A DNA stretch of 64,000 bases, from the IMG/VR virus record IMGVR_UViG_3300042268_000478, positions 32,001-96,000 of that record; one strand, 5' to 3'. This DNA is from a virus. Its lineage: Duplodnaviria; Caudoviricetes. How positions within the stretch are numbered: the stretch's first letter is position 1; every line of letters starts with the position of its first letter. Shown one piece after another: positions 38,275-57,506 of the stretch. The notes beneath the pieces are model-generated. The model saw nothing but the letters and a program-made list of their open reading frames with translations. It ran no database searches and was not told where the DNA came from. Made by a program: the position numbers and the translations under genes.

Positions 38275-39462
38275 ATGAGTACGGAAGTACAGCCCATCGA
38301 AGAAGTGAAAGTAACTGAACTGAGAAAAGCAGCACGTCACTTCGCACCGGAAACCAGAGGCGTTGGTGGACTTGCCCACGCTGGAACCCGTGAACAATTA
38401 ATTCAGCTTCTTCTTCAAGACAAGGGCGTAATGGCAAGCGAAATTCAAGAGTTTCTGGCTGGCGGTGATGTCCAAGCTCCCCAAGATACTCCAGAACCCT
38501 ACTGGCACGGTTTTGATGCAGGGGCTGGAGCAGGTGAAGGAGAAGAGCCAGAACAACAGCCGGAGCAAAAGCAGGAACAGCCACAAGAAAAAGAAGCTTC
38601 AAAAGGCGAAAATGATGAACTCGAAATTATCCGCAAAATCATCAATAAGGGCAAAGGCGTAGACGAAGAGGCTGTCAAAAAGATCGTAAGGGAAGAGCTG
38701 AAAAAGAAAGTAAAAGTTATCGAAGTCAAGCGCCAAGACCTCCCTCCGAAAGAAATCGGCATGTGCCATCATCTTACAGAGCAAATTGCAAAGGTCTGTA
38801 ATCTAGGCATCAATCAGATGCTTGTTGGTCCAGCAGGTGGCGGTAAAACTACCACAGGCGAAAAGGTTGCAGAAATTCTCGATATTCCGTTCTATCCTAT
38901 GAGTGTCGGCCCACAAACAACTAAAAGCGACTTGCTCGGCTTTATTGATGCTCACGGCAACTATCACGCTACACCGCTCCGCAATGCTTTCGAGAATGGC
39001 GGTTTACTTCTTCTCGATGAAATGGATGCGGCAAACGCTGGAGTTCTCACCATCATCAACGCCCTGCTTGCGAATGGCTACTGCTCATTCCCAGACGGCA
39101 TTAAGAAACGCCATGATGATTTTCGTTGCATCTGCGCATGTAACACTTTCGGGAGAGGAGCTGACCGCCAGTATGTGGGACGTAACCAACTGGACGCGGC
39201 AACCCTTGACCGTTTCGCTGTAGTTGATTTTGATTATGATGAAGACCTTGAGCGCCAGCTTGCCGGACATGATGAATGGGTCAGCAAAATTCAGCGTTAC
39301 CGCAAGCGTGTTTTTCAGACTAAGCAGCGGGTGGTAATTTCTCCACGTGCTAGCATTTACGGAGCTCAACTTCTAGCATCCGGCATGAAAGAAAAAGATG
39401 TCGAAGAGCTCGTTGTCTGGAAAGGCGTAAGCGCTGAAATCCGTAGCAAAATCCAAGGCTAG
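38275..39462 (+). CDS. MoxR/CobS-like AAA+ ATPase
   Basis: 'GPAGGGKT', 'LLLLDEMD', 'NTFGRGADRQYVGRNQLDAATLDRF'. Confidence 0.9.
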   Translation: MSTEVQPIEEVKVTELRKAARHFAPETRGVGGLAHAGTREQLIQLLLQDKGVMASEIQEFLAGGDVQAPQDTPEPYWHGFDAGAGAGEGEEPEQQPEQKQEQPQEKEASKGENDELEIIRKIINKGKGVDEEAVKKIVREELKKKVKVIEVKRQDLPPKEIGMCHHLTEQIAKVCNLGINQMLVGPAGGGKTTTGEKVAEILDIPFYPMSVGPQTTKSDLLGFIDAHGNYHATPLRNAFENGGLLLLDEMDAANAGVLTIINALLANGYCSFPDGIKKRHDDFRCICACNTFGRGADRQYVGRNQLDAATLDRFAVVDFDYDEDLERQLAGHDEWVSKIQRYRKRVFQTKQRVVISPRASIYGAQLLASGMKEKDVEELVVWKGVSAEIRSKIQG

Positions 39463-39483
39463 TAAGAGCTGAGAGGTGTAGTC

Positions 39484-40317
39484 ATGAATATTGAAAAACG
39501 TCCAAGTGAAATGTTCGTTGATTTCGAGAACATTCTGGAATTTGCTAATTTTGCCAATGAAATACCAGACACAAACTATTCTAAAGACAGAGATGACGAA
39601 GAATGGTGCGGAGGAACTTTTGAAGATGCAATGACTCAGGCAAAAACTGGAAATCCAGAGCTTTGCAATAAACTCTTTGATGACGTAAGAGTTCTTGAAG
39701 CTCTTATTGAGGAAGACAAGATTGGAGAAATTCGGGACGTTACCGGAGAATATTTCGATGTTGGAGACGTTATTTCAGGAGAGCCGGAATGTTGGAGGAG
39801 AGACGAATACGGAGAGCAGAAACCAGTAATTCCCATATATGCTAGTTTCGGAATGAATGCCGGTATTTCTCCAGAAACTATTTTTCATCGAGGAGCAGCA
39901 ATAGTTGCAATGATTGACGAATTAGAATCAAATGGATTTACTGTAGACTTATATCTTGAAAAAGGCACAACATACAGAAATGTTACTTATCATTATTTCA
40001 TAAAAGTAAAAACTGACCCTATTGATTTGGATACTGTTGCATTTATTCTTGCAAATCCTTTATGTCAAAGACGATTGTCCTTTGCAGTTCTTGAAAAGCT
40101 TACAGAAGAGGATTATTGCTCAGGTTATGGCGTTTCCAAGAACTTGCCTTCTGAACGTATTTTGCAGGATACTGATTTGTCCGGCTTTTACTTCTGTTGT
40201 TCAAATGCGATTCAGTTTAGGGAAAAAAATTACAGCACCCTCGAAGCAGCGAAAGATCACATCCTTAAAATGCTTGAAGACTTCAAGAATAACGCGGCAC
40301 AAGTAATAATCGGGTAG
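39484..40317 (+). CDS. AAA partner protein (VWA/CobT-like, degenerate)
   Basis: Follows MoxR AAA; 'FDVGDVISGEPECW', 'RGAAIVAMIDELESNG'. Confidence 0.6.
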   Translation: MNIEKRPSEMFVDFENILEFANFANEIPDTNYSKDRDDEEWCGGTFEDAMTQAKTGNPELCNKLFDDVRVLEALIEEDKIGEIRDVTGEYFDVGDVISGEPECWRRDEYGEQKPVIPIYASFGMNAGISPETIFHRGAAIVAMIDELESNGFTVDLYLEKGTTYRNVTYHYFIKVKTDPIDLDTVAFILANPLCQRRLSFAVLEKLTEEDYCSGYGVSKNLPSERILQDTDLSGFYFCCSNAIQFREKNYSTLEAAKDHILKMLEDFKNNAAQVIIG

Positions 40318-40714: not shown

Positions 40715-40993
40715 ATGAGTACCAACTCGGAACTTAAAAAGGGAGTCGTCAGATGGTTCAGTCCCAGCAGGGGCTACGGATTCATTGACAGCAAGCAAGG
40801 TGACGTTTTCGTCCACTATTCAGCAATCAGCACAAAGGGCTATAGAGAGTTGCAGAGCGGCGATGTTGTACAATACACCTCTCAACCCACGGAAAAGGGC
40901 TTGATGGCTTTAACGGTCTTCCCTGCCCCTTCACGCAAGGCATCCTCCGCTAAATACTCACGCCGTAGACAATGGAGACGTAAAAATGCCTAA
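40715..40993 (+). CDS. Cold-shock domain protein
   Basis: 'GVVRWFSPSRGYGFI', 'DVFVHYSAI', 'GYREL'. Confidence 0.92.
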   Translation: MSTNSELKKGVVRWFSPSRGYGFIDSKQGDVFVHYSAISTKGYRELQSGDVVQYTSQPTEKGLMALTVFPAPSRKASSAKYSRRRQWRRKNA

Positions 40994-41585
40994 TCCAAGA
41001 ATTGAAATTGATGTTCCTGATGGAGTCTCTGGAAACTGGCAGGTCAGCAGCTTTGAAGTTTCTGAAAAAGACGCTTCTTGGTTTAATCTGGGGCAAGCGA
41101 TCAAAGGGACACGCAGAAATATTGTAGCTGGCAAATACAAGAGAATTTGCAGAAACGGCAGGGTGATAATGTCTAATACTCCTGCCGAAATAGCCGACCA
41201 TATGAAGTTCATTCTTACCGCCAAACAGGAAGGCGGTCACATCTTGATAAATGGGCTCGGTCTTGGTGTAGCACTCAAAGAAATATTGACCAGCGAAAAG
41301 GTGAAATCCGTTACTGTCGTAGAAAAGTCAAAGGACGTGATCGCTCTGGTTGCCTCAACATACCTGAAAGATAGCAGGGTAAAAATCATCGAAGCAGATG
41401 CTTATGATTACACGCCACCGGCTGAAATTAAATACAGTGCGGTATGGCATGACATTTGGGACGATATTAGCTCGCAGAATCTTCCAGAAATGGCAAAATT
41501 GCGGAGAAAATACTCCAAGTTCGCAGACTGGCAGGGTTCCTGGGCTGAGAATGAATGCCGTAGACAAAAGAGACGTGGCTATTAG
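40986..41585 (+). CDS. Spermidine-synthase-like class I SAM-dependent transferase
   Basis: 'ILINGLGLG', 'VTVVEKS', 'IIEADA', 'WHDIW'. Confidence 0.8.
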   Translation: MPNPRIEIDVPDGVSGNWQVSSFEVSEKDASWFNLGQAIKGTRRNIVAGKYKRICRNGRVIMSNTPAEIADHMKFILTAKQEGGHILINGLGLGVALKEILTSEKVKSVTVVEKSKDVIALVASTYLKDSRVKIIEADAYDYTPPAEIKYSAVWHDIWDDISSQNLPEMAKLRRKYSKFADWQGSWAENECRRQKRRGY

Positions 41586-41596
41586 GAGAATACATC

Positions 41597-42070
41597 ATGT
41601 CTTCCAGCTATGAAACCAGAGAGAATTTGCGGGATGCTAACCGTGCTCTACGAAAAACCATCAACGAAAAAAACATTGAAATACTTAAACTTAGAAAGGA
41701 GCTTGAGATTTATATGCAGGAGCAATTAAAACAACTGGATTCATTCAAACAGGTATTCAATTCCTTCCAAATGAAAATCCATGAAAACGCCAAGGATAAA
41801 GGCTGGCACGAACAGGAACCAAGAAACAACGGGGAGCTTATCGCTCTCTGCCACAGTGAGCTTTCCGAAGCCTTGGAATACCTGCGTCACGACAATCCGA
41901 AAAGTGACCATATTCCAGAATTCACTGGAGTAGAGGAAGAACTTGCAGATGTCATTATCCGTATCATGGATATGGCGCAATTGAGAGGTTGGGATATCGC
42001 AGGCGCGATGATTGCCAAGCACGAGTTTAACCGCATAAGATCACACCGGCACGGCGGTAAGCAGTTTTAA
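41597..42070 (+). CDS. MazG-like nucleotide pyrophosphohydrolase
   Basis: 'LCHSELSEALE', 'EEELADVIIRIMD', 'KHEFN'. Confidence 0.85.
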   Translation: MSSSYETRENLRDANRALRKTINEKNIEILKLRKELEIYMQEQLKQLDSFKQVFNSFQMKIHENAKDKGWHEQEPRNNGELIALCHSELSEALEYLRHDNPKSDHIPEFTGVEEELADVIIRIMDMAQLRGWDIAGAMIAKHEFNRIRSHRHGGKQF

Positions 42071-44513: not shown

Positions 44514-44726
44514 ATGAAACTTTTTATAAACAAGAATAGTTCCTCGGAGCTTATAGAATGGCTCAAGGCAGTTTGTGAGTACATAGAGGATGATGCAAAT
44601 AACCTTACGGCAGGAAACTTGTCGCATCATCGTCCATCTATCAGATGGAAAGCAACCAGGATGAAGCAAGTCTTAGATGCCTTGCCTGATAAAATTAAGC
44701 AGGAAAAAGAAAAGGAAGATAAATAA
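44514..44726 (+). CDS. Hypothetical protein
   Basis: RBS GGAGG. Confidence 0.6.
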   Translation: MKLFINKNSSSELIEWLKAVCEYIEDDANNLTAGNLSHHRPSIRWKATRMKQVLDALPDKIKQEKEKEDK

Positions 44727-45598
44727 TGCTATACGAAAAATCTACTTGGTGGGATGAAGCCTGGAACCCAGTCTGGGGATGCACTCCAGTCAGTGAAGAG
44801 TGCGAACACTGTTATGCGAAGTCTCTTGTTGAGACTCGATTTGCAAATAATCCTCTTGCGCCGGTGCATGATTTCAACGTAAAAATTGTTGAGAAGCAGT
44901 TCAATAAGCGTTTCAAGAAGAGTTCTAAGCGGATTTTTATCTGCAACATGAGTGACCTTTTTCATGAGCAAGTGCCGTTTGAAGTAGTTGACCGAGTGCT
45001 AGCACGAGTAGCCCAAGACCAAGAACGGCAGTATTTTATTCTGACCAAGCGTGAAAAGCGAATGGCTGAGTATTTCAGCTACCATGACACTTGCTTGAGA
45101 GTGGCGAACGAAGCAAAAATCAGACCTCACAAATTACTCGAACGCTGGCCATTAAAAAATCTTTGGCTTGGGGTAACTGCCGGTAATCAAAAGAATCTGG
45201 ATTTAAGAGTTCCATACCTCCTAAAAACTGGCTGGTCTAATTTGTTTGTAAGTATTGAGCCAATGCTTGAAGATGCAAATCTAAAATATGAATGGTTTGA
45301 AACTGACAACGAGAAAGAGTGTCCAAACAAAAACCTTACTCTCCACAGAAAAATACATCTATGTCCTAAGTGTGCACCGAAAACGTCCGGTGGAATTGGC
45401 TGGATTATTTTTGGAGCTGAATCCGGTTCAGATCGGAGACGTTGTGAAAATCAATGGATAACCAACGGAGTAAAGATGTGCAAATCAGCAAACATTCCCG
45501 TATTCGTCAAGCAGTTAGACATTAATGGTAAACTTGTTAAGGATATTTACAAGTTCCCTGAGCTCTTGAGAATAAGAGAATTTCCCGAAATGTCGTAA
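44726..45598 (+). CDS. DUF5131 / phage Gp37Gp68 family (radical-SAM-like)
   Basis: 'WNPVWGCTPVSEECEHCYA', 'MSDLFHE', 'LTKR', 'SIEPML', 'GAESG', 'FVKQ'. Confidence 0.9.
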   Translation: MLYEKSTWWDEAWNPVWGCTPVSEECEHCYAKSLVETRFANNPLAPVHDFNVKIVEKQFNKRFKKSSKRIFICNMSDLFHEQVPFEVVDRVLARVAQDQERQYFILTKREKRMAEYFSYHDTCLRVANEAKIRPHKLLERWPLKNLWLGVTAGNQKNLDLRVPYLLKTGWSNLFVSIEPMLEDANLKYEWFETDNEKECPNKNLTLHRKIHLCPKCAPKTSGGIGWIIFGAESGSDRRRCENQWITNGVKMCKSANIPVFVKQLDINGKLVKDIYKFPELLRIREFPEMS

Positions 45599-47144: not shown

Positions 47145-47912
47145 ATGGCGACCAGAAAAACAAGTGCTCGGGCTAAAAACAAAAAAGCCACAGAAAAGAC
47201 GGTCAAGAAAGCTGTGCTTCAAATCAAAGAATATGACATTGAGTATCTTCTTGCCTGTAAGGCTAAGTACAATCCGAGAAAAATCTCTGGAGAACAGCAG
47301 GCTGGCTTACGCCTTTCCATGACCAAGTTTGGCTATGTCCAGAACATTATCTTCAACGAAAAGACCGAAACTGTAGTATCGGGTCATCAAAGGCTTGATA
47401 TTCTTCATGCGGAAGGTTATGAGCGCGTTGAAGTGCATGTCGTTAATCTTTCCGAAGAGCAGGAGAAGCAGCTTAATGTTGCAATGAATGCCTCGACGAT
47501 TTCCGGGGATTTTACTGCCGGAATTAACGAAATGATCGAAGACATTCTCAAGGAAGACCCGGAGCTTTATGACTTGGCAAACCTTGGGTCGCTTATGGTG
47601 CTTGATGAAGACGAAGAAAAGCCTGAAAAGAAAAATGATGACAAGGAAGGCGTACCGGGGATGGACCTGCTGCCATACGAACACTATGACTGCATGCTGG
47701 TGGTGTTCAAAAACGTTGACGACTATCTATACCTCAGCAGCGCGCTCGGACTGGATGAAAAGCGGGTCATATCAGCCCCGATGGTCAAAAACAAACGTCT
47801 CGGGAAAGTGCGAGCCGTAGCAGCGGATAAACTGCTTGCGCTGATCGAAGGCGGCAATGAGGGCGCGATCGACATCATACTTGACGATCTTGAAGATATT
47901 AAGGGGTTGTGA
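47145..47912 (+). CDS. ParB/Srx N-terminal domain protein
   Basis: 'YNPRKIS...SMTKFGYVQNIIFN...VVSGHQRL'. Confidence 0.85.
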   Translation: MATRKTSARAKNKKATEKTVKKAVLQIKEYDIEYLLACKAKYNPRKISGEQQAGLRLSMTKFGYVQNIIFNEKTETVVSGHQRLDILHAEGYERVEVHVVNLSEEQEKQLNVAMNASTISGDFTAGINEMIEDILKEDPELYDLANLGSLMVLDEDEEKPEKKNDDKEGVPGMDLLPYEHYDCMLVVFKNVDDYLYLSSALGLDEKRVISAPMVKNKRLGKVRAVAADKLLALIEGGNEGAIDIILDDLEDIKGL

Positions 47913-47913
47913 T

Positions 47914-48693
47914 ATGGCTGGTGAAGTAAAAACATTCGATGATTATTCCGGCAGGGATTATCTCACCATTATCCCATCCAAGGGCAGACCCGACAGAGTG
48001 GCTAAGGTGCAGAAGGTGTTTCCTAATGCCGTCATGTACATAAACGCCAGTGAGCTCGAAAGCTATGCCCCGAACTGCGACATTCCTATCATACTCCATA
48101 ATGAGACCATGGGCTATGGTAGTGTCATGAATAGCATCTTCCGTGAATGCACCAAGGCGAATATCAGGTACAGTGTTGTGTTTGACGACGATGTTGAATC
48201 ATTCGATTCTCTTGTCGGCAACCGCCCTCGCAAACTAACCGTCGAACAGACGGAAGAGGCGATTGTTAATGCTTGCCAGATACTGGAAGACTTGGACGCT
48301 TACATCTATCTGTTCAGTACATGTTCTTCGTGCGTAAAATACCAGCAGTCGGAGCCGTTTAAGATTGGGTTCAGTTTATCACAAGGGGCTTGGGTGTTGA
48401 GAAACGATAAGATGGGCAGGTTCAAACTCGGAATGCACCACTACGAAGATTTTGATTTCTGTATGGATTACGTCTTGAAGCACCGGTACATGGTTATAGA
48501 AAACCGGTTTCAGGCAGTATCAAAAGGCGCATACGAAGCCGGTGGCTGCAATTCGTTCAGAACCTCGGAAAACGAAAAATCTAGCATGGAATACATCAGG
48601 AAAAAGTGGAAGGGCAATGTCGCCTTCGTGGTGAATCAGGGTGGCACGATTCGCCCTACTGCCAAAATAAACAGGCAGCAAAGAAGGAAATAA
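47914..48693 (+). CDS. GREB1-like / TET-associated-type GT-A glycosyltransferase
   Basis: 'IIPSKGRPD', 'VFDDD', 'EDFDFC', 'AGGCNSFR', 'KKWKG'. Confidence 0.78.
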   Translation: MAGEVKTFDDYSGRDYLTIIPSKGRPDRVAKVQKVFPNAVMYINASELESYAPNCDIPIILHNETMGYGSVMNSIFRECTKANIRYSVVFDDDVESFDSLVGNRPRKLTVEQTEEAIVNACQILEDLDAYIYLFSTCSSCVKYQQSEPFKIGFSLSQGAWVLRNDKMGRFKLGMHHYEDFDFCMDYVLKHRYMVIENRFQAVSKGAYEAGGCNSFRTSENEKSSMEYIRKKWKGNVAFVVNQGGTIRPTAKINRQQRRK

Positions 48694-48818
48694 TAAAAAA
48701 AGATTTTTTTTTATTTTAAGATTGGAAATACAAAATCATAAGATTATGATAACGCTATAGTAATCAACAACTTACATAAAGTTGTTAAACAAAAAAACCA
48801 CAAGGGAGCACGAGAAAG

Positions 48819-49007
48819 ATGAGTAACATGAGCTATTGCAGATTTAGGAACACCGAAACTGACCTCGAAGACTGCTACGCAAGTATGGAAAATGGAGACG
48901 AACTGTCACACGAAGAAGCCGAGGCAAGGAAAAGACTTATTGAGCGATGTGTTGATATCGCTCTTGACTATGGGCATGAAGTTGGCAGAGCAGTTGAGGA
49001 AGTATAA
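48819..49007 (+). CDS. Small phage protein
   Basis: 'MSNMSYCRFRNT..DL.DC'. Confidence 0.7.
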   Translation: MSNMSYCRFRNTETDLEDCYASMENGDELSHEEAEARKRLIERCVDIALDYGHEVGRAVEEV

Positions 49008-49064
49008 AAATAACCATTGTAAACTAAAAGCAAGACTAACCACAAACCGAAAGGAAAAAACCAC

Positions 49065-49688
49065 ATGAGCAACCCGATGAAACAACCGACCCCAAGAGGG
49101 TACAATCCGTATGAACTGATGTCCGCTATGCAGAAGTTTGTTCGCCGCAGTATGGAGCGCGAAGCCCTGTTTTGCTTCTATGAGCTTGAAGCAGCCGGAC
49201 TTTACTATGCAGCCGCATCCCGTCTCACAGTCATTGTTTACGAAGACTGCGGCATGGCGAACCCGGCCTTGCTTAACTCCATTCAGGGGCATATGGAGCA
49301 GATGGCTAAATGGTGGAAGGCTAACAACGGCGCATGGCGGCTTGTGCTAGGCAACATTATCCTGCAAGCCTGTCGCGGCAAGAAGACCAGAATTGCCGAC
49401 CACTTCGTTTGCTCCATGATGGGAGCTATGGTGAACGGCTACAAGGTTGACCTTGAGCAGTACAGCGAGTTCGTCTTTGATATGCATACTCGACAGGGCA
49501 AGCAAATGGGGCGCGGGCTAGACCACTTCTTTGAGCACGGCATGACGATTATCGAAAGCACAGAAACCACTGATTATGCCAATGATGAAATGCGCGAACT
49601 TCTCAAGGCTGAAAAGATCAGTGATGACATTTCCGAAGATTATAAAAAAGACCCGCGAAACCTCGCAAAACAAGGAGACCTTTTTTGA
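49065..49688 (+). CDS. Stand-alone RarA/MgsA C-terminal-like domain protein
   Basis: 'YELMSAMQKFVRRS...EAL...RL.VI.YEDCGMANP'. Confidence 0.7.
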   Translation: MSNPMKQPTPRGYNPYELMSAMQKFVRRSMEREALFCFYELEAAGLYYAAASRLTVIVYEDCGMANPALLNSIQGHMEQMAKWWKANNGAWRLVLGNIILQACRGKKTRIADHFVCSMMGAMVNGYKVDLEQYSEFVFDMHTRQGKQMGRGLDHFFEHGMTIIESTETTDYANDEMRELLKAEKISDDISEDYKKDPRNLAKQGDLF

Positions 49689-50365
49689 ACTCGAAAACTG
49701 TTCATATATCACAACCAAGGATTTATCCGCATTTGTCTTATTTGGAGAAAATAGCAAGTGCGGATTTATTTGTCGTTCTGGATGATTTAATGCTTAAGCC
49801 GGAGCTTTTCGAGCGGCGCAATCGCTACTACTGCTTCAACGCCGGAGAACCGCGCTTTCTTACCATTCCTACCGAAAAAAAAAGGCAGCACCGGCATTTG
49901 AAAATCACCGACTTGGATTTTGCCAAGAAGCACCGGCGCATACTTAAAGACAACTACTGGAAACGCACAGCCCGCTTTGATGAAGACATTCTCAATGAAA
50001 TTGTTTTCGACCCGGCTAATGAATCCTTTCTCGAATACTACACCGAATCATTAGCCCGTACAATGAAGCTCCTTGGCTTTCACACTGAAATCGCTTTATC
50101 ATCCCAAGTTGCCAGCCCAAACGTCAAAACAGAGCGCCTTAATGATATTCTACGCTATCATCAGGCAGATACCTACCTGTCGGGCGCATGTGGAGCCGAA
50201 TACATGGGCGAAGACTGCTGTGTGCCGGTTGTCTTCCGTAGGCACGAGGAAGAAGTGAGCCGCTTCCACTCCAACAGCAATACTGACATGATGCTTATGT
50301 TTATCGACACACTTTTTGATAAAGGACTGGAATTCACAAAAGGACTGTTGCATAAAAATGATTGA
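49685..50365 (+). CDS. WbqC-like family protein
   Basis: 'ISQPRIYPHLSYLEKIASADLFVVLDD', 'RRN', 'LTIP', 'KTERL', 'ADTYLSG...EY'. Confidence 0.85.
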   Translation: MNSKTVHISQPRIYPHLSYLEKIASADLFVVLDDLMLKPELFERRNRYYCFNAGEPRFLTIPTEKKRQHRHLKITDLDFAKKHRRILKDNYWKRTARFDEDILNEIVFDPANESFLEYYTESLARTMKLLGFHTEIALSSQVASPNVKTERLNDILRYHQADTYLSGACGAEYMGEDCCVPVVFRRHEEEVSRFHSNSNTDMMLMFIDTLFDKGLEFTKGLLHKND

Positions 50366-50981
50366 TACTTTGATTATAGCTGCTCACGACGACGATGAGG
50401 CCTTGATGGCTGGTGGATACATTGCGAAGTATGCCAGCCAAAAGGAAATCGTTGTATGTGTTGTTATCGGCTGCACCGATGACCAGAAAGCAGCTTCCGC
50501 AAAAAACGCAGAAGCATTCGGCTACACGATTGAGCCCATTTATGAAAAGCAATTCGCAACCCCGCTTCACGTCCTTGCGGCAAAGATTAATCAGGTCATT
50601 TTAAAGCACCGTCCTCAGACCATTATCACACACACTTATTTCGATACCCATCAGGAACACAAGCTGGTTCACGATGCCGTTGAGATTGCCACGCGGGCTA
50701 TTGATATGAGAGAGGCAGGGGGTGGGCACTTTGTCCCGAATATTTTACTTGGGCTCGGCACCGGCTTGTATGAAAACTCTATAACTTTAACCAGACCGCA
50801 GTGCTTTGTCGGGCTCTCCCGGAAAGAAGTCAATCGTAAGGTGGATATGATGAATCGCTACGGTCTTGAAATGAAGGGAATCAGAAGCAGGATCGGTGCT
50901 ATCACCGATGCTAGGTTTTGGGGCAAGATGAACGGGACGCAATTCGCCGAGGCGTTTATTGCTAAAAGGATAGCCGTGTAG
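50358..50981 (+). CDS. PIG-L/LmbE family N-deacetylase
   Basis: 'IIAAHDDDEALMAGG', 'DTHQEH', 'AEAF'. Confidence 0.85.
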   Translation: MIDTLIIAAHDDDEALMAGGYIAKYASQKEIVVCVVIGCTDDQKAASAKNAEAFGYTIEPIYEKQFATPLHVLAAKINQVILKHRPQTIITHTYFDTHQEHKLVHDAVEIATRAIDMREAGGGHFVPNILLGLGTGLYENSITLTRPQCFVGLSRKEVNRKVDMMNRYGLEMKGIRSRIGAITDARFWGKMNGTQFAEAFIAKRIAV

Positions 50982-51054: not shown

Positions 51055-51426
51055 ATGAGCAAATCTGACGAAAAAAAGCCAGAGGAAAAAAATCCAGGCG
51101 GTAGACCCAAAAAAGAAATCAACTATGATACCGTTGAAAAGCTCGCACGGATTATGTGCACTCAGGAAGAGATTGCTGCCGTTCTTGACATAAGCGTGAG
51201 GACATTACAGAGAGATGAGGAGTTTTGTCGCATATATAAAAAGGGACAGGAACTTGGCAAGGCAAGCCTTCGCCGCTCTCAATATAATCTTGCCATGAGC
51301 GGCAATGCCACGATGCTGGTCTGGCTTGGCAAACAACTCCTTGACCAATCGGACAAACAAACCCACGAAGTTGACGTTACTCAGCCCATTGTGCTAAAAG
51401 TAGACGAAGATGACGCAAAAGCCTAA
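51055..51426 (+). CDS. Terminase small subunit
   Basis: 'GGRPKK', HTH, 'SLRRSQ..LA..GNATMLVWLGKQLL.Q'. Confidence 0.8.
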   Translation: MSKSDEKKPEEKNPGGRPKKEINYDTVEKLARIMCTQEEIAAVLDISVRTLQRDEEFCRIYKKGQELGKASLRRSQYNLAMSGNATMLVWLGKQLLDQSDKQTHEVDVTQPIVLKVDEDDAKA

Positions 51427-52681
51427 ATTCAAAAAGACCCAAGACCAGATTCAGGCGGTAAAACTCATGATTGGCAGTGCGGTGCATGTGCTACTGTTCG
51501 GCGGCTCCCGCTCTGGCAAAACATTTATTATTATCCGGCAGATTCTTTTAAGGGCGATAAAAGCCCCCGGCTCCAGACACTGTATCCTGCGCAAAACCCA
51601 AACTGATATTAGAAAAAGTATCTGGCTTGATACCTTGCCAAAAGTGCTTGAATTGTGCTTTCCCGGCGTTCCGATCAAGAAGAACGAAGCGTATCTGAGG
51701 ATTATCCTGCCGAACAAGTCCGAAATATGGCTCGGGGGCTTGGATAAAACAGATAAAATCCTCGGTAACGAGTACGCCACGATGTACTTTAATGAAATCT
51801 CTGAAATCTCATACGAGCAGGTTGAAACGGCACATTCCCGACTTGCCCAAAAGTGCCCGGAACTCGTGAACAAGTTCTTCTACGACTGCAACCCGCCGAG
51901 CAAGTCACACTGGAGCTATAAGGTTTTCAATCAGAAAGTGAATCCGGTGGAGAACACGCCTCTCCCAAGACCGGAGCTCTATACTTATATGCGCCTGAAC
52001 CCAGACGGCAACAAGGAAAACCTTGCAGACGGATACATTGAAACAACCCTTGAGGGTATGTCCGAACGCAAAAAGAAACGTTTCCTGCGTGGCGAATGGG
52101 CAGACGACAACGAAAATGCTCTCTGGAAACGTGATAGCATGATTAATCCGTTCAGGGTAAAAAGCCTGCCTCCAGATTTGGAACGTATCGTGGTAGCTGT
52201 AGACCCTGCCGTCACGAGCAAGGAAACTTCCGACCATACCGGCATTGTGATAGCTGGCTCCAAGCGTTTCAACGGCGAAAAGCATTACTATGTGCTAGAT
52301 GATCGCTCCCTGATAGGCACTCCGAAAGAATGGGCAAGCACAACGGTAAACGCCTATCGTGAATATTTTGCTGATCGTGTCGTTGCTGAGGTGAATCAAG
52401 GTGGTGATCTGGTTGAAGCCACGTTAAGGAACATTGATAAGAGTATCAGTTACCGTGGTGTCCGTGCTTCAAGAGGAAAAATCCTGCGAGCGGAGCCGAT
52501 TGCTGAACTTTACGAACGTGGTTTAGTTCACCATGTCGGCTCGTTTCCGCTGCTGGAAGATGAAATGTGCTCGTATTGTGGTTTCGATAACGAGCAGTCC
52601 CCCGACAGGCTTGACGCTCTGGTTTGGGCTCTCACAGAACTCTCGCACCGTGCCGGAGGCTTTAGGGCTATACTGGCTTAA
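51410..52681 (+). CDS. terL: Terminase large subunit
   Basis: 'GGSRSGKT', 'DCNPP', 'VVAVDPA', 'AEVNQGG', 'SPDRLDALVWA'. Confidence 0.95.
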   Translation: MTQKPKFKKTQDQIQAVKLMIGSAVHVLLFGGSRSGKTFIIIRQILLRAIKAPGSRHCILRKTQTDIRKSIWLDTLPKVLELCFPGVPIKKNEAYLRIILPNKSEIWLGGLDKTDKILGNEYATMYFNEISEISYEQVETAHSRLAQKCPELVNKFFYDCNPPSKSHWSYKVFNQKVNPVENTPLPRPELYTYMRLNPDGNKENLADGYIETTLEGMSERKKKRFLRGEWADDNENALWKRDSMINPFRVKSLPPDLERIVVAVDPAVTSKETSDHTGIVIAGSKRFNGEKHYYVLDDRSLIGTPKEWASTTVNAYREYFADRVVAEVNQGGDLVEATLRNIDKSISYRGVRASRGKILRAEPIAELYERGLVHHVGSFPLLEDEMCSYCGFDNEQSPDRLDALVWALTELSHRAGGFRAILA

Positions 52682-53064
52682 TATTGACTTGGAAATATAA
52701 CTTGCTGATATATTTCATATTGCCTCAGCCATTCCATCTCTTTAGGACTAAAGTCTAAATCATCATAATTTTCAATAGCAATGGATTCGCATTTTGATAT
52801 AATACGTTCCAAGTCATGAACCATTTTTTTATATTTTATTTGAGTTTCAACCTGTTCGAACTTATCACCGTCGAGCATACAATTAATGTTTGCCATTAAA
52901 GACTTAGCATCAACATAAATCTCTTCCACATCATCAAAATGATCTACAATGCTAATAGCTGCATCTACATTTTCTTTTGCGCGACGCAATTCAGACGCTT
53001 TTGCTACTATCTGATTGTATTCTTGTATGTATTTCTTGTATTTTCCCTGATTTACTCTTGGCAT
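52678..53064 (-). CDS. Hypothetical moron protein
   Basis: AT-rich, opposite strand, RBS GAGGA. Confidence 0.6.
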   Translation of the reverse strand: MPRVNQGKYKKYIQEYNQIVAKASELRRAKENVDAAISIVDHFDDVEEIYVDAKSLMANINCMLDGDKFEQVETQIKYKKMVHDLERIISKCESIAIENYDDLDFSPKEMEWLRQYEIYQQVIFPSQY

Positions 53065-53104
53065 TTTTATATCCTCTAGGTTATTTTGAGTATATTATTC
53101 TAAA

Positions 53105-53998
53105 TTATGAAGGAATACCATAATAAAAAGAGATTGCTTTTGTAAGTAATGCCCCTGCAGTGTCAATTCCGATATTCCAAATGCCGGAAGCAGATTTACC
53201 AACCATTTCCCCAATCCATCTGCCAACTTTCGAGCCGAAATGCTCAGTACTTACTGGTTTTGGGTCTTCCTCAATACACTGCTTCAGATTTGCAATATCG
53301 TCGTTGGAAATACCATTTGATTTCAGATAATTTGATAACGATTCAAAGTTATTCTTCTTGATATCCATAGTCAAATTCTGATTGACAGTACTGTTTTTTA
53401 TATCTCCGAGATTACCTTGAAAATTCCCGCCAATATTAATATTAGTAGTCATATGTGTTGCTAGCTCTTTTTCTTCTTGCGAAAACGACATTCCTTCTCC
53501 AGTTATTCCTTGCTCTTCTAATTCTAGAGACCAATTTAAAATTTTATTTCGTACAGTGCTAACAATGCACATCAGTACATTCGGAGCCACTGAAAACCGA
53601 ACTTTCATTGGATATGTTTGCTGGCTAATCAAATATTTTTCCATTTCTGCAGGAAATGTCATTTGTAAACAACCATCTTTATATTTTGATAACTCATCAA
53701 GATTCTCAATGGGATCGTGAACTTTTCTTATTTTGAAAATATTTGCAGACTCTTCATCTTCAAAAAAAAATGGAATCCAACCATTATATGGGTTAAAGGC
53801 TTCGACTTGTCCGTGAACAGTACGATATTCTGGAATAAGCGATATATCGCTATATCCATTAAGCTCATTGTTTATCCATTCTCGATAAGAATCAATTTTA
53901 AGTTTACGAGAAATAACAAGAGCTTTTTTTAGTAAGTTCCCAGCCGTGACATTATTATCAAGTGCATCCCGTTGTAATTCTGAAACTAGACCTTCCAT
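53105..53998 (-). CDS. AbiTii-domain protein
   Basis: 'LVSELQRDALD....NLLKKALVISRKL....EWINNELNGY....PEYR'; start ATG 53998 after GGAG. Confidence 0.8.
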   Translation of the reverse strand: MEGLVSELQRDALDNNVTAGNLLKKALVISRKLKIDSYREWINNELNGYSDISLIPEYRTVHGQVEAFNPYNGWIPFFFEDEESANIFKIRKVHDPIENLDELSKYKDGCLQMTFPAEMEKYLISQQTYPMKVRFSVAPNVLMCIVSTVRNKILNWSLELEEQGITGEGMSFSQEEKELATHMTTNINIGGNFQGNLGDIKNSTVNQNLTMDIKKNNFESLSNYLKSNGISNDDIANLKQCIEEDPKPVSTEHFGSKVGRWIGEMVGKSASGIWNIGIDTAGALLTKAISFYYGIPS

Positions 53999-54092
53999 GC
54001 AACTCTCCAATGTTCGTTTATTATTGGTTAAGCTATCACTAACGTTTATTGTTATCAACTCAAAATGAAGCGGGAAGTATAAATTTTTAAAT

Positions 54093-54136
54093 AATTTACT
54101 AAATTAACTTGACAACGGTAAATATAAAAGTAGGTT
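54093..54136 (+). promoter_or_regulatory. Promoter: repeated motif directly followed by TTGACA
   Basis: AATTTACTAAATTAAC at 54093-54108 then TTGACA at 54109-54114. Confidence 0.6.
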
Positions 54137-54194
54137 CTAATTATAAACTAAATTTACTAACACCAAGTAAACAAAAAACACAAGGAGCTGTAAG

Positions 54195-54572
54195 ATGAGT
54201 ACAAAGAGTGAAAAAATTGAAGTCGTAGCAAAACAAATCAAGAGAGCGGAGTTTCGCTTGAATGAAATAAGTGAATGGGCAGCGGAAAATTTTGGAAATG
54301 CCATTAATGCCTATGCAAGTTCCTATTTTGAATTACAAAGGTACTTAAAGCATCTCAAAAGCTTGCATTCAGTCCTGGATACAGAAGTTGAAGAACCAAA
54401 CACAAATGAAATTCTAACTGGCATGATTGACAGTGAAATATCTTACATAACTTCCGAAATATTCAGCGTGAGAACCGATCCATGCGGTCAACTTGAATCA
54501 AAAGGATACGTTCAGTTGGTTCGCAAAGGCGGCACTCTCGAAACCTTAAAAGACCTTTTAGAACTCAATTAA
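54195..54572 (+). CDS. Hypothetical protein
   Basis: RBS AAGGAG. Confidence 0.65.
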   Translation: MSTKSEKIEVVAKQIKRAEFRLNEISEWAAENFGNAINAYASSYFELQRYLKHLKSLHSVLDTEVEEPNTNEILTGMIDSEISYITSEIFSVRTDPCGQLESKGYVQLVRKGGTLETLKDLLELN

Positions 54573-54603
54573 TCATAAAAACCACAACAGAAAGGGAACC
54601 AAG

Positions 54604-54897
54604 ATGGAACACCGGCACGAAGTAGCATTCAAAATCGACAAAAGCACAATCTTAGGCGAAGACTTCAAAGCCACCGTACGTGAAATGGTGCGCATGACGA
54701 CAATCAACGATTTTATGAGCAAGCGGCATGGCAAAAAAGTAGAAATGCAGTACACCCCAACGGTTAACTTCCTCTATGATATCGCAAGAGAAGCAATACA
54801 CGACCAGATAGGTGACGTTCTGGCAGAAATGGAAGAAGAAGACCCTGTCGAAATCTACAAATCAATGGTCGCAGAATTCGAAAACAAACCACAATAA
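54604..54897 (+). CDS. Hypothetical protein
   Basis: In-operon ORF. Confidence 0.65.
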   Translation: MEHRHEVAFKIDKSTILGEDFKATVREMVRMTTINDFMSKRHGKKVEMQYTPTVNFLYDIAREAIHDQIGDVLAEMEEEDPVEIYKSMVAEFENKPQ

Positions 54898-54943
54898 CCC
54901 AAATAACCACAATTCAAATCCACAGAAACAAGGAGTATTCCAA

Positions 54944-55369
54944 ATGTCTACTAGATCAACTATTGCAATCCATGAGAATGATAAAATCAGAGCAATCTAT
55001 TGCCACTTTGACGGCTATCTTCATGGGGTCGGCTCAACTCTTCATAATCATTATAACACCGAAGAGAAAGTAAAAGAACTCATAGAGCTTGGAGACCTGA
55101 GCTCTCTTTCTGAAAATGTAAAACCCCGAGAAGGCACACCCCACTCATTCGACAAGCCACAAAAGGGCGTAACAGTTGCTTATATGAGAGATCGCGGAGA
55201 GAGCGAAGTAGAACCAAATGAATACTCTAGCCGAGAAGAATTGTTTGAAGCAGCAAATAGCTGTTATGGAGCCGAATTTGTTTATCTCTTTGAGAACGGG
55301 GAGTGGATTTATAGACAGGTTTACGACGAACAGGAAGAAGGCTGGCAAGTTGTCGCAGAAGAACTTTAA
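54944..55369 (+). CDS. Conserved phage protein (YCHxDGY motif)
   Basis: 'MSTRSTI...IYCHFDGY..GVG..L'; RBS AAGGAG. Confidence 0.75.
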   Translation: MSTRSTIAIHENDKIRAIYCHFDGYLHGVGSTLHNHYNTEEKVKELIELGDLSSLSENVKPREGTPHSFDKPQKGVTVAYMRDRGESEVEPNEYSSREELFEAANSCYGAEFVYLFENGEWIYRQVYDEQEEGWQVVAEEL

Positions 55370-55413
55370 GTAAAAAAAATAACCACACAATAGCCACAAA
55401 AGGAGCAACCACA

Positions 55414-55776
55414 ATGACCACAATCAAAGGACTGCTGATTGACCCCGCAAAAAGGACGATCAACGAAGTAGAACTAGAAGAGAAAAATGACAGCTACCTG
55501 AGCGACATGCGCCGTCTTTTGGGCTGCAGCACTGTTGATGTAGCTAGAGAACAAATTGCCGGAATCAACCTTGATATATGGGTTGATGACGAAGGGGCTT
55601 TCAAGAGCCCTGAGTATTTCTTCCATCTTCCAAATTATCCAGAATGGCTGTGCGGAAAAGGCTTGGTGCTAGGCAATGACGACTTGGGCAACTGCATTTC
55701 CCACGGTCTGACCCAGGAGCAAATCGAAGCCTTCGCCCAAAGCGTAAAGCTCGGAACCAGAAGAAAGGATATATGA
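55414..55776 (+). CDS. DUF3846-like protein
   Basis: 'LLIDP', 'IWVDDEG', 'LCGKGLVLG'. Confidence 0.65.
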   Translation: MTTIKGLLIDPAKRTINEVELEEKNDSYLSDMRRLLGCSTVDVAREQIAGINLDIWVDDEGAFKSPEYFFHLPNYPEWLCGKGLVLGNDDLGNCISHGLTQEQIEAFAQSVKLGTRRKDI

Positions 55777-56228
55777 TCATGAATTTGAATGATATGAACG
55801 AAAAGCAGTTAAGACAATACAAGACTCCTGTCGTTGAAAGCATAGAGGAGCTTGCAACAATAATTAATTCGCTTGCGAACAGAAAACACGATTATGGAAC
55901 CTGTGTCTATGCCATGAGCATTGCTGCACATGCTACATTCAGGTATATCGCAAATCATCTTGGCGTAACTGGTTTTCAGGCAAGCTGTGCAGACCTTGAT
56001 TTTCTTCGCAGAACGAGAAATATAGATGCTTTCAAAATCGTTGACTACAGCAAGGTTCTATACCCGCAGTATCATGATGAAATCAATAACATCTGCGTTG
56101 ATAAAATCATTGCTGAAAATAAAGATTATTTTCGTGCAGAATGCAAGAGACTCCTGAAAAACCCAGAACATGCGTCTGCAAACGTGATCGCCAACTGGAA
56201 AGCAGTACTAAAAAAATGCGGAGACTGA
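55773..56228 (+). CDS. Hypothetical phage protein
   Basis: 'HDYGTCVYA', 'GVTGFQA'. Confidence 0.65.
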   Translation: MIMNLNDMNEKQLRQYKTPVVESIEELATIINSLANRKHDYGTCVYAMSIAAHATFRYIANHLGVTGFQASCADLDFLRRTRNIDAFKIVDYSKVLYPQYHDEINNICVDKIIAENKDYFRAECKRLLKNPEHASANVIANWKAVLKKCGD

Positions 56229-56231
56229 AAG

Positions 56232-56441
56232 ATGCAAACCAAAACCTTAGCAGAACTTAGAGCTGAATTTGAAAAAATGGCTATTGAAAAAATGTATATG
56301 CTTGGAAGAGAAGTATGCGGTGTATATGACTCTCCTGTAACACAACAGTTCTGGTGTGGCTATTGGCAATGCGCTAAGAAATACGGAGTAATTGTTGGAA
56401 AAGATGCAAACGTGCAAAATATGAATAAATGGGAGGAATAA
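56232..56441 (+). CDS. Hypothetical protein
   Basis: In-operon ORF. Confidence 0.5.
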   Translation: MQTKTLAELRAEFEKMAIEKMYMLGREVCGVYDSPVTQQFWCGYWQCAKKYGVIVGKDANVQNMNKWEE

Positions 56442-56443
56442 CC

Positions 56444-56722
56444 ATGCCTATCTGTAACCGCAACCATTCCCCTATAGTCCACAACAAAATGATCTGTCCA
56501 CTTTGCAGGGCTATCAACGATTGCCTAGAGGCTAACAAACAGATAATTGCTATTGCCGTTGAAGCTGTCCACTGGAGACGGGAATTTAAAGATGCTTGCC
56601 CAGATGTTGGATGGGGAGAGTCCTTGGAAACGTCAATTGATAAAGTCACAGAAGCAGCAGGAGCTTTCATTGACACAAATAAGCTCGTTGAAGCGTATAA
56701 ACTTAAATACGGGAAAAGATGA
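56444..56722 (+). CDS. Hypothetical protein
   Basis: RBS GGAGG; C..H..CxxC. Confidence 0.55.
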   Translation: MPICNRNHSPIVHNKMICPLCRAINDCLEANKQIIAIAVEAVHWRREFKDACPDVGWGESLETSIDKVTEAAGAFIDTNKLVEAYKLKYGKR

Positions 56723-57141
56723 TCATGATATACAAAGGGACACGAGGAAAGCCAGTCAAAACGCTTGAGCACTTGCAGGAGCTTGCTGAAAACCGCAAGT
56801 CGATTATTATAAACCATTGGGTCAAATCGAGCGTCCTTCCAGCCAAGTCTATTCTCTATCGCCAGTGTGCGGATGTCATAAGCCTTTTAAAGAGCGATAG
56901 GTTGTTTGAATACATCAAGCCTACTCCACACCCCAAACAGAAAACAACGAGGTTGTACGGGCGTAAAAAGGGCAAAAAAGAAGACCCCCGTATCGAACTC
57001 AGCCAGCAGGACATAAAAGACATGCTACAATTGCTTAATGACATCCCGAACAGTTCCCCCGGCCACAACGATTATCGGTTCAAGAACACATATGCGATCT
57101 GCTCTTTTTTGAGAGGAAAGCTTAGAGAGCTGGAGGGCTAG
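56719..57141 (+). CDS. Hypothetical protein
   Basis: Coupled start. Confidence 0.55.
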   Translation: MIMIYKGTRGKPVKTLEHLQELAENRKSIIINHWVKSSVLPAKSILYRQCADVISLLKSDRLFEYIKPTPHPKQKTTRLYGRKKGKKEDPRIELSQQDIKDMLQLLNDIPNSSPGHNDYRFKNTYAICSFLRGKLRELEG

Positions 57142-57145
57142 CACA

Positions 57146-57415
57146 ATGCTTTGCAACGTTTGCGGCGAGGACAAGCCAAAGAGCAAGTTCTACAAGCACT
57201 ATCACAAGTGCAAAACCGGCACCTGCATCCTGTGTTTTCGGGAAAAGCAAAACAAGACTTACAATAGAGCCAGTACTCCCCCTATGTCTCATGAAGACAT
57301 ACGTGACTGGAACAGGCAGCACCCGTTCGACAAGGCAATACTCCGAGGCATGGTCTACAGCCTCAGAAACATGCGTATGAATTCCCCTGAAGGTAGAGCA
57401 TCTAAGTTATTTTGA
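57146..57415 (+). CDS. Zn-finger hypothetical protein
   Basis: 'CNVC.EDKP.SKFY...CILC'. Confidence 0.6.
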   Translation: MLCNVCGEDKPKSKFYKHYHKCKTGTCILCFREKQNKTYNRASTPPMSHEDIRDWNRQHPFDKAILRGMVYSLRNMRMNSPEGRASKLF

Positions 57416-57506
57416 ATTTCAGGATATAGTTGGAAACACCAATTTAATATTGAAATTTTGCTCCTGCTTAATTATATTAACGCAAATATAAAGCAGGAGT
57501 TTTATT

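Follow-up and report, generated by a model that had tools for sequence, protein, structure and literature searches.

Two kinds of described system come closest to the locus reported here. The first comprises phage DNA hypermodification clusters in which a 5mYOX (TET/JBP) dioxygenase is encoded together with a ParB protein and a glycosyltransferase (GT). In these clusters a GT of the GT-A/TAGT type lies beside a short ParB without a DNA-binding domain (DBD), within a DNA-metabolism region by the terminase (PMC8256090; bioRxiv 10.1101/2023.12.21.572611; PMC13229309). GTs, ParBs and terminases are the commonest neighbours in 5mYOX clusters, and short phage ParBs, which consist of an NBD and a C-terminal domain and have no DBD, activate their cognate DNA-modifying 5mYOX thymine dioxygenases on double-stranded DNA (PMC13229309). 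Phage GTs of such clusters have been proven to place N-acetylhexosamine (HexNAc) on 5-hydroxymethylcytosine (5hmC) of DNA (bioRxiv 10.1101/2023.12.21.572611). The second system is the synthesis of bacillithiol and mycothiol, which proceeds by transfer of N-acetylglucosamine (GlcNAc), de-N-acetylation by a PIG-L-family enzyme, and aminoacylation by a Rossmann enzyme resembling class I aminoacyl-tRNA synthetases (aaRS). MshC adds Cys in the mycothiol pathway, as BshC does in that of bacillithiol. For bacillithiol, the order of action is BshA (the GT), BshB (the PIG-L-family deacetylase) and BshC, which transfers Cys onto glucosaminyl-malate (PMC5790435). Here, a five-gene cassette is compared with both systems. 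It occupies positions 47145-50981 of a 64,000-nucleotide stretch of viral DNA (the window), which corresponds to bases 32001-96000 within the 106,924-base IMG/VR virus record IMGVR_UViG_3300042268_000478. The encoded proteins are, in this order, a ParB-like protein, a TAGT-family GT, a RarA/MgsA C-domain-like protein (MgsA_C-like protein), a WbqC-family protein, and a PIG-L/LmbE-family de-N-acetylase. As judged from family membership and neighbouring genes, it is on balance probable that this cassette performs a post-replicative decoration of phage DNA with aminoacyl-hexosamine, DNA being the target.

The five genes are tightly packed on the + strand directly upstream of terS and terL, and SSB and replication genes precede them. 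Spacings are 1, -4 and -8 nt, save for one AT-rich gap that holds a non-conserved open reading frame (ORF) of 62 codons. The GT probably starts at the ATG at 47914, one base past the stop codon of the ParB-like gene. The TTG start of WbqC overlaps the stop of the upstream MgsA_C-like gene by 4 nt, and the probable ATG start of PIG-L at 50358 overlaps the WbqC stop by 8 nt. A first-pass annotation of the window had listed genes for ParB-N, GT, RarA-C-like, WbqC and PIG-L proteins ahead of terS/terL, and had named IPSKGR, DDD, EDFD and GGC as motifs of the GT. All of these genes were found on the + strand in this close arrangement, and the motifs are present in the window protein and conserved in its relatives. 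Membrane segments were predicted in none of the five cassette proteins. Since neither membrane segments nor a flippase are seen, the cassette does not appear to be an envelope-glycan pathway. Scans for promoters and terminators gave counts near the shuffled expectation, with no clear operon boundary within the cassette, and none of GT, MgsA_C-like protein, WbqC and PIG-L was matched by PADLOC.

The genes of the cassette belong together in other phages as well. Contexts were compared for six relatives from a search with the GT and for five IMG/VR loci, which were found by means of the narrow alignment A3; all were scored with hidden Markov models (HMMs) of the five families. Scans of IMG/VR with single proteins and with a WbqC alignment yielded no relatives. 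All five families occur together in each of the nine distinct loci that are long enough to show them (the window, L001/L019, L002, L007, L008/L009, L010, L012/L013, L016/L017/L020 and L018), a grouping that is far beyond chance. The co-occurrence of GT, WbqC and PIG-L next to terminases across phage genomes, which the first-pass annotation had suggested as a check, is thus seen in 9/9 adequate loci, mostly beside the terminase. The cassette lies directly upstream of packaging genes in L001, L007, L008, L010, L012, L015 and L021, and in L002 several small ORFs intervene. Three gene orders were observed, namely ParB-GT-MgsAC-WbqC-PIGL, PIGL-ParB-GT-MgsAC-WbqC, and MgsAC-PIGL-WbqC-ParB-GT. No match was obtained among 50,697 GenBank phage records with the 3.9-kb stretch (blastn) or with GT and WbqC (tblastn); at this sensitivity, the full cassette was not detected in any cultured phage.

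A BLASTP comparison of the prophage ORFs of the window with all loci showed that the phage backbone is common to L007 and L010 only. With the flanks of L001, L002, L008, L012, L016 and L018, the window phage shares the five cassette genes alone, apart from weak matches to terL in L012 and L018, and the types of terminase, portal and capsid differ between the window phage and these other-backbone loci. Because only five genes are shared across backbones, the cassette can be regarded as self-contained and mobile, with no sixth gene travelling along. The phages among which it moves have unrelated virion proteins, and a substrate common to all of them is more readily seen in DNA than in one particular structural protein. 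We tend to favour a self-contained, horizontally mobile cassette that would decorate replicated phage DNA shortly before packaging.

The GT is one of the components that point to DNA. TAGT is a DNA-glycosylating GT-A family, and it is the sole GT family matched by all 18 members of the GT clade (E<=0.01). The extended motifs IPSKGR, DDD, YEDFD and GGCNSFR are present and conserved, with DDD being invariant, and the protein matches phrog_842, annotated as beta-glucosyl-HMC-alpha-glucosyltransferase, with an E value of 1.6e-15. An AlphaFold2 (AF2) model with a predicted local distance difference test (pLDDT) value of 82 was compared with structure collections. Its best BFVD matches are all TAGT-domain phage proteins (TM-score TMq 0.62-0.73), including the T6-type beta-glucosyl-HMC-alpha-glucosyltransferase. 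The top fold neighbours in the PDB are the ordinary GT-A enzymes AvpGT, TarS, SpsA and TarP, with a TMq of about 0.5. AvpGT is a nucleoside 3'-O-glucosyltransferase (PMC11959488) and was considered as a hint of a sugar-hydroxyl acceptor; it was dismissed because its TMq of about 0.5 does not separate it from the other GT-A enzymes. Relatives of the GT are rare: just 23 were found at 90% clustering among 5.8 billion proteins, those with names coming from metagenome-assembled genomes of Victivallaceae, and an all-library HMMER search gave a tight clade followed by a gap down to about 30% identity.

The beta-glucosyl-HMC-alpha-glucosyltransferase of phages T2 and T6 has PF20691 and the predicted fold in common with the cassette GT, and the T-even enzyme acts on DNA after replication. 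In contrast to the cassette, it adds a second glucose onto glucosyl-5hmC that derives from a pre-replicative dCMP hydroxymethylase; the cassette has no hydroxymethylase, and its sugar would be a tailored N-acetyl hexosamine.

The ParB-like gene is found immediately upstream of the GT gene in every locus, overlapping or abutting it, and usually overlapping. By sequence, the protein consists of an N-terminal ParB/Srx-type domain, an acidic linker and a small C-terminal domain, with no recognisable DBD. It is 53-56% identical to its partners in L001 and L002, and a GHQR box of the GxxR type is invariant among relatives. The N-terminal domain is most similar to ParB-N modules that are fused to phage DNA methyltransferases (phrog_498; PADLOC MTase_II, 2e-17 for the N-terminus). 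The Pfam model ParB_N (PF02195) matches with an E value of 0.039 and 14.4 bits, below its cut-off of 26.3; PF02195 is present in the homologues of L011 and L012. The methyltransferase fusions resemble the cassette in combining a ParB-N module with an enzyme that modifies, or in the cassette would modify, DNA. They differ from it in that the cassette encodes its ParB-like protein separately and with a C-terminal domain of its own, next to a glycosyltransferase. Compared to the 5mYOX clusters, ParB is here paired with the GT itself, and PIG-L, WbqC and the RarA_C-like protein are obligate. A physical pairing of ParB and GT received weak support from complex prediction, with a median score of 0.54 versus 0.00 for the best control; of the pairs used for calibration, 58 of 80 solved complexes passed the mark, as did 2 of 110 mismatched pairs, and scores <=0.60 were given to just 7 of the 80 solved complexes, plus both passing mismatches. 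Contact agreement between the runs was at least 87%, and the partners had pLDDT values of at least 71.

The third protein resembles a stand-alone C-terminal domain of RarA/MgsA, which is a replication-fork protein. In addition to the PDB entries listed in Table 1, a phmmer search found E. coli RarA (3pvs) with an E value of 0.016. The score for Pfam MgsA_C (PF12002) is 15.7 bits (E 0.014) at a cut-off of 27, and PF12002 matches are carried by the relatives L012 and P0224. A match in SP-15 concerns a gene whose annotation reads RarA or clamp loader, and it was taken as a similarity at the level of the family only. The cassette protein is 56-58% identical to its L001 and L002 partners; no full cassette lacks it, and the minimal locus L021 has it as well. 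It is probably an oligomeric scaffold. Its C-terminal pentapeptide QGDLF fits the consensus QL[SD]LF of bacterial beta-clamp-binding peptides. The exact QxxLF C-terminus is found in 14 of 38 family clusters, and most of the others have xLF or xMF within the last 8 residues, following a poorly conserved tail. This motif suggests that the MgsA_C-like protein is tethered to the host sliding clamp. If the tail is functional, the cassette would be tethered to newly replicated DNA.

The acidic C-terminal tails of the ParB-like proteins end in hydrophobic residues, as in ...DLEDIKGL, ...GFQL, ...GFDEL and ...NEYDL (window 47880-47912 and the corresponding termini of L001-L018). The C-terminal tips of SSB are a known binding site of RarA. 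It might be that the ParB tail, which is reminiscent of such a tip, serves the MgsA_C-like protein as a docking place.

The two remaining enzymes indicate what would happen to the transferred sugar. All WbqC homologues carry PF08889. With the WbqC sequence, no match was found in the PDB at E<=1. The AF2 model (pLDDT 91.2; predicted TM-score, pTM, 0.88) superposes best on BshC (4wbd_A), with a VIA-align Z of 13.4, a root-mean-square deviation of 3.0, and 213 of 226 residues aligned; unrelated entries scored far lower. BshC is also the top Foldseek match, with a probability of 0.98. Lower values were obtained for LysRS-I (Z 11.2), GluRS (Z 8-8.8) and MshC (Z 6.6); GluQRS and CysRS were also ranked, and Dbv21 is a weak fold neighbour in the Foldseek ranking. 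The coiled-coil dimerisation domain of BshC and a membership at the sequence level are missing from WbqC, which comprises 226 residues versus 540 in BshC, and the core alone aligns. Judging from the model, WbqC thus has a BshC-like fold and is not BshC itself. From its HUP fold of the class I aaRS type, it is predicted to link an amino acid to an aminosugar, as a ligase or a transferase.

The PIG-L protein matches phrog_11796 (1e-14), and its best NCBIfam matches, which are weak, are BshB1 and MshB. The metal-ligand motifs AHxDDE (AHDDDE) and HxxH (THQEH) are conserved across seven loci. Characterised PIG-L/LmbE enzymes, such as PIG-L, MshB, BshB, the teicoplanin and A40926 deacetylases and BtrD, act on GlcNAc-glycosides after the transfer step. 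Because the fold of WbqC is nearest to BshC and then to class I aaRS, the combination of GT, PIG-L and WbqC copies the logic of BshA/B/C and MshA/B/C. The most economical chemistry is therefore HexNAc transfer, de-N-acetylation and N-aminoacylation. The first-pass annotation had proposed an N-acetyl-sugar that is added to DNA, deacetylated and re-acylated, with glycylation as an example; the choice of glycine is a guess. The sugar part of this proposal is strengthened by the linkage of the cassette genes, the intact ligands of PIG-L and the BshC-like WbqC; that the sugar sits on DNA is read from families and neighbours.

The same enzyme logic could yield a soluble aminoacyl-glucosaminide during lytic growth, such as a bacillithiol- or mycothiol-like compound, or a signalling or anti-defence molecule. 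GT, PIG-L and a BshC-like enzyme are exactly what such a pathway uses, and the weak BshB1/MshB matches of PIG-L agree with it. We nevertheless consider a soluble product very improbable. The cassette GT is a GT-A enzyme of the TAGT family and not a GT4 enzyme like BshA and MshA. Furthermore, the most conserved members, the ParB-like and RarA_C-like proteins (53-58% identity versus 38-48% for the GT), would be without a role in such a pathway, the ParB-GT-RarA_C core also exists without PIG-L and WbqC (L021), and the position next to the terminase is conserved. Other differences from bacillithiol and mycothiol synthesis are that WbqC is devoid of the coiled coil and has less than half the length of BshC, and that the acceptor is probably a polymer.

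A related triad is known from cells. A Streptomyces operon contains GT4, WbqC and LmbE beside a dedicated ProRSx and tRNA-ProX, together with MurG (PMC10404621). It shares the association of GT, WbqC and PIG-L/LmbE with the cassette. However, it is cellular, contains GT4 and MurG, is probably envelope-directed and has no ParB or RarA_C; its role is likewise a predicted one. By analogy with this operon, WbqC enzymes may draw their amino acid from a dedicated aminoacyl-tRNA.

The tailoring genes differ among the loci, which bears on the stage at which the sugar would be modified. In L012/L013, whose GT has 33% identity, the five cassette genes are interleaved with genes for a hexapeptide acetyltransferase, an NAD-dependent dehydratase/epimerase and a DegT aminotransferase; this is probably a diamino-deoxy-sugar version of the same system. 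The minimal locus L021 has no sugar-tailoring genes, and in L015 a GT and a DegT aminotransferase precede terS/terL. Because L012/L013, L021 and L015 differ in their tailoring genes, the trio ParB-TAGT-MgsA_C appears to be a core around which the enzymes for sugar tailoring can be exchanged. It can be argued that with DNA as the target, PIG-L and WbqC instead convert the uridine diphosphate-linked sugar (UDP-HexNAc) to UDP-aminoacyl-hexosamine before the GT transfers it. The dehydratase/epimerase, DegT and hexapeptide acetyltransferase of L012/L013 normally act on nucleoside diphosphate (NDP)-sugars, L015 pairs its GT with the DegT aminotransferase alone, and the name WbqC comes from an O-antigen locus; in such loci, it is usually the NDP-sugar that is tailored. 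Yet the characterised PIG-L/LmbE enzymes work on glycosides after transfer, and BshC and MshC likewise act on the glycoside, after the deacetylase. Tailoring ahead of transfer therefore appears improbable; it is a sub-variant, and its weight is counted within that given to DNA as the target.

For the decoration of replicated DNA, the following order of events is proposed. The RarA_C-like protein, probably as an oligomer, would dock via its QxxLF tail on the host sliding clamp on newly replicated DNA and organise the enzymes there. The ParB-like protein, by analogy with the ParBs of 5mYOX clusters, would hold or activate the translationally coupled TAGT GT on double-stranded DNA. The GT would then transfer HexNAc from the host UDP-HexNAc pool to a DNA acceptor, both donor and acceptor being presumed. 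PIG-L would remove the N-acetyl group, as is expected from the action of this family on GlcNAc-glycosides after the GT step. Finally, WbqC would acylate the freed amine with an amino acid that is either activated as adenylate or taken from an aminoacyl-tRNA. The product would be an aminoacyl-hexosaminyl nucleobase. What makes DNA the likeliest target is the conjunction of a GT that matches TAGT only, a ParB-N domain of the methyltransferase type, the RarA_C homology, the QxxLF tail and the analogous pairing of 5mYOX and ParB.

Several points weigh against DNA as the target. The assignment is drawn wholly from family membership and neighbouring genes, and the Pfam scores of ParB_N and MgsA_C in the window both lie under their cut-offs. 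PIG-L and WbqC stem from glycan and small-molecule pathways. The reaction of BshC has never been reconstituted and its activated donor is still unknown (PMC5790435); firm chemistry is therefore not available from this closest structural analogue. Moreover, enzymes for the hydroxylation of pyrimidines were found neither in the record nor in the five IMG/VR fragments nor around the seven related loci. In the 106,924-base record, TET/JBP (PF12851) gave no match at E<=10 and the thymidylate synthase-like PF00303 none at E<=1, which extends to the whole record the first-pass statement that the window has no TET or hydroxymethylase gene. 5mYOX or ThyS-like genes were found neither in the five IMG/VR relatives nor in the Pfam lists for 16-19 kb around the seven related loci. 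Among the unannotated early ORFs of the prophage (34548, 42369, 42896, 43483, 44100 and 46712), Pfam at E<=10 showed nothing that resembles a dioxygenase or hydroxymethylase. A very divergent 5mYOX might still be hidden among the unannotated ORFs, but no gene beyond the five, the weak terL match aside, is shared across backbones. We know of no glycosyltransferase that glycosylates an unmodified DNA base. The authors of the GT survey saw GT contigs without 5mYOX/ThyS as less obviously DNA-directed, and a base-priming enzyme is lacking from about 65% of phage GT contigs (bioRxiv 10.1101/2023.12.21.572611).

Given that there is no acceptor-making enzyme, the cassette does not represent a TET/JBP-type pathway. 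As no maker of 5hmC or 5-hydroxymethyluracil (5hmU) is encoded, the acceptor would be a canonical base or position, or it would be supplied by the host. A rather doubtful elaboration is that the GT, held on fresh DNA by the ParB-like clamp and the clamp-tethered RarA_C scaffold, glycosylates a position for which no earlier hydroxymethylation is needed, either on a canonical base or at a backbone atom, whereupon the sugar is deacetylated and then aminoacylated by the BshC-like enzyme, possibly from an aminoacyl-tRNA.

The missing priming enzyme, in the record and its relatives as in most phage GT contigs, also speaks for a target other than DNA. The glycosylated molecule might be a protein of the virion or of the packaging machinery, or else a cytoplasmic macromolecule of the host, with the ParB-like and RarA_C-like proteins acting as adaptors outside DNA chemistry. 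Phages are known to glycosylate virion proteins, and the PDB neighbours of the GT model are ordinary GT-A enzymes. On the other hand, with unrelated terminase, portal and capsid types across the loci, the flanks do not reveal any protein that could be a shared acceptor. The restriction of the GT to the DNA-type TAGT family, the ParB-N of the type fused to DNA methyltransferases, and the RarA_C domain with its clamp-type tail, which point to replication, likewise disagree with a non-DNA acceptor. We judge such a target to be unlikely.

Restriction sites give a further argument against DNA modification. The prophage (record 63520-106924) is depleted in GGCC (12 observed, 104 expected), GCCGGC (0 versus 15.5) and TCCGGA (0 versus 14.8), and CGCG and GATC are likewise strongly avoided. 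A genome that is protected from restriction throughout would have no need of such avoidance, and a blanket anti-restriction role is therefore not evident. The palindromes are likewise avoided in both adjoining regions of the record, which makes the test weak. The avoidance could be reconciled with a temperate lifestyle, in which the biases of the host are shared, or with partial, site-specific modification. The published ParB-dependent modifications are partial and site-specific (PMC13229309). Because there is no priming enzyme, no known GT for an unprimed base, and a persisting palindrome avoidance, the rival explanations keep real weight.

Taken together, the cassette resembles a ParB-GT hypermodification cluster that has been joined to a tailoring line of the bacillithiol/mycothiol type, but it is a member of neither. 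It stands outside both because there is no base-priming enzyme, the GT is a different one, and the BshC-like enzyme is truncated. The 5mYOX, the C5-methyltransferase partner and the thymidylate-synthase-like hydroxymethylase of the former clusters are all missing, whereas steps two and three correspond to the latter pathway by family. New are the mobile five-gene cassette, the BshC-like fold of WbqC, the conserved QxxLF tail and the absence of a priming enzyme. The main text of the GT preprint (bioRxiv 10.1101/2023.12.21.572611) does not contain the terms 'Deacetylase', 'LmbE', 'RarA' and 'MgsA', nor is 'Deacetylase' used in the main texts of two PNAS papers. In the literature library that was searched, no paper mentioning WbqC deals with phage DNA.

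To our knowledge, the known sugar hypermodifications of phages all build on 5hmC, 5hmU or 5-hydroxycytosine, each of which is the product of a dedicated enzyme. A DNA-type GT with a ParB and a replication-linked scaffold that works without a priming enzyme would thus suggest that either the acceptor or the mode of priming is new, and the cassette would be categorically new if the acceptor were an unprimed DNA position. An aminoacyl-hexosamine nucleobase would represent an undescribed DNA modification chemistry reached by a priming-free route, with the PIG-L and WbqC steps extending the repertoire to sugars on DNA that are tailored with amino acids. Such decorated DNA would matter for the nuclease resistance of phages, for the sequencing and cloning of environmental phages, and for DNA-labelling enzymes. 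Moreover, the BshC-like fold of WbqC and the link to the ProRS/tRNA operon provide a lead on the role of WbqC and on the amino-acid donor of BshC-type enzymes.

Table 1. Features of the cassette and of the adjoining packaging genes (window positions), and variant cassettes of related loci (positions of the respective locus).
Feature	Position	Strand	Match or content
Short ParB-like protein, 255 aa	47145-47912	+	PHROG 9353/498/620, E 5e-24 to 3e-21
TAGT-family GT-A glycosyltransferase	47914-48693 (longest ORF 47857-48693)	+	PF20691, 36.8-37.2 bits, cut-off 27.5
62-aa ORF, function unassigned	48819-49007	+	phrog_8760, 4e-16; 125-nt AT-rich spacer ahead
Stand-alone RarA/MgsA C-terminal-domain-like protein	49065-49688	+	phmmer versus PDB: 2r9g 7.4e-7, 8g28 2e-6
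QGDLF C-terminal pentapeptide of the MgsA_C-like protein	49671-49685	+	beta-sliding-clamp-binding-type motif QxxLF
WbqC-family protein, 226 aa	49685-50365	+	PF08889, 86.6 bits, cut-off 21.3
PIG-L/LmbE-family de-N-acetylase	50358-50981 (longest ORF 50316-50981)	+	PF02585, 47.4 bits, cut-off 28.2
terS	51055-51426	+	phrog_309, 2e-14
terL	51410-52681	+	phrog_979, 9e-69; Terminase_6N, Terminase_3, Terminase_6C
Expanded cassette	L012:7274-13745, L013:2992-9463		ParB_N, TAGT, hexapeptide acetyltransferase, MgsA_C, dehydratase/epimerase, WbqC, 60-aa ORF, PIG-L, DegT; then 293-aa ORF, terL
Minimal cassette	L021:7363-9356		ParB-like, TAGT, MgsA_C-like only, directly before terL; no sugar-tailoring enzymes

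The 62-aa ORF does not belong to the conserved set; it is absent from most related loci, and at this place in L007 there is just an ORF of 75 aa. The region 48694-49064 of the window begins with the AT-rich 125-nt spacer that follows the GT gene and contains AACCACA-type boxes near 48798, 49040 and 49060, which closely precede the 62-aa ORF and the MgsA_C-like gene. The spacer with these boxes is a possible internal regulatory point that would split the cassette into the halves ParB-GT and MgsAC-WbqC-PIGL.

The record contains two tandem phage-like elements, which cover 1-30577 and 31520-64000 of the window (record 32435-62577 and 63520-106924). The sequencing runs listed as containing the stretch are wastewater and bioreactor metagenomes (DNA), with none listed from RNA. 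The first element has a structural and tail module with a G+C content of about 0.50-0.55 and ends near 30.6 kb of the window. The second is the cassette-bearing prophage with a G+C content of about 0.40-0.46; it starts with a tyrosine integrase at 31520, the DNA ahead of which belongs to the other phage-like element, and the end of the record cuts its tail genes. Three genes for C5 cytosine DNA methyltransferases are found in the record, at 3801-5420 of the window (+ strand; record 35801-37420) and within record 12741-14739 (- strand). They were rejected as partners of the cassette, since they lie outside the prophage in the neighbouring element and are unlinked to the cassette.

The early and middle genes of the prophage run rightward and encode a PD-(D/E)XK/DUF2800 nuclease, a replication initiator, a pair of AAA_5 and DUF7192 proteins and a cold-shock protein. 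These are followed by a methyltransferase similar to spermidine synthase, a MazG-like pyrophosphatase, DUF5131 and SSB, then by the cassette and by terS/terL. The AAA_5 (MoxR/CobS-like) ATPase and the DUF7192 protein (38275-40317) are kept as a pair in the related phages L007 and L010. The gene at 40986-41585 codes for a 199-aa protein dependent on S-adenosylmethionine, which matches models of polyamine aminopropyltransferase (spermidine synthase; E 1.7e-8) and phrog_15480 'methyltransferase' (1e-40), and which is not conserved alongside the cassette. A putative polyamine aminopropyltransferase occurs within a published HexNAc-transferring phage DNA-modification cluster, contig 69 (Pyle et al., bioRxiv 10.1101/2023.12.21.572611). 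The early region further contains a MazG-like nucleotide pyrophosphatase gene (41597-42070) and a DUF5131 gene (phage Gp37/Gp68, similar to radical-S-adenosylmethionine 'mobile pair A'; 44726-45598). Genes of these kinds are in some cases connected with the chemistry of nucleotides or DNA, but neither of the two moves together with the cassette. Downstream of the packaging genes, an island of about 5.5 kb (52678-58193) extends from terL to the portal gene at 58261. In this island lie a series of small ORFs and, reading leftward, a gene with an AbiTii domain (53105-54058).

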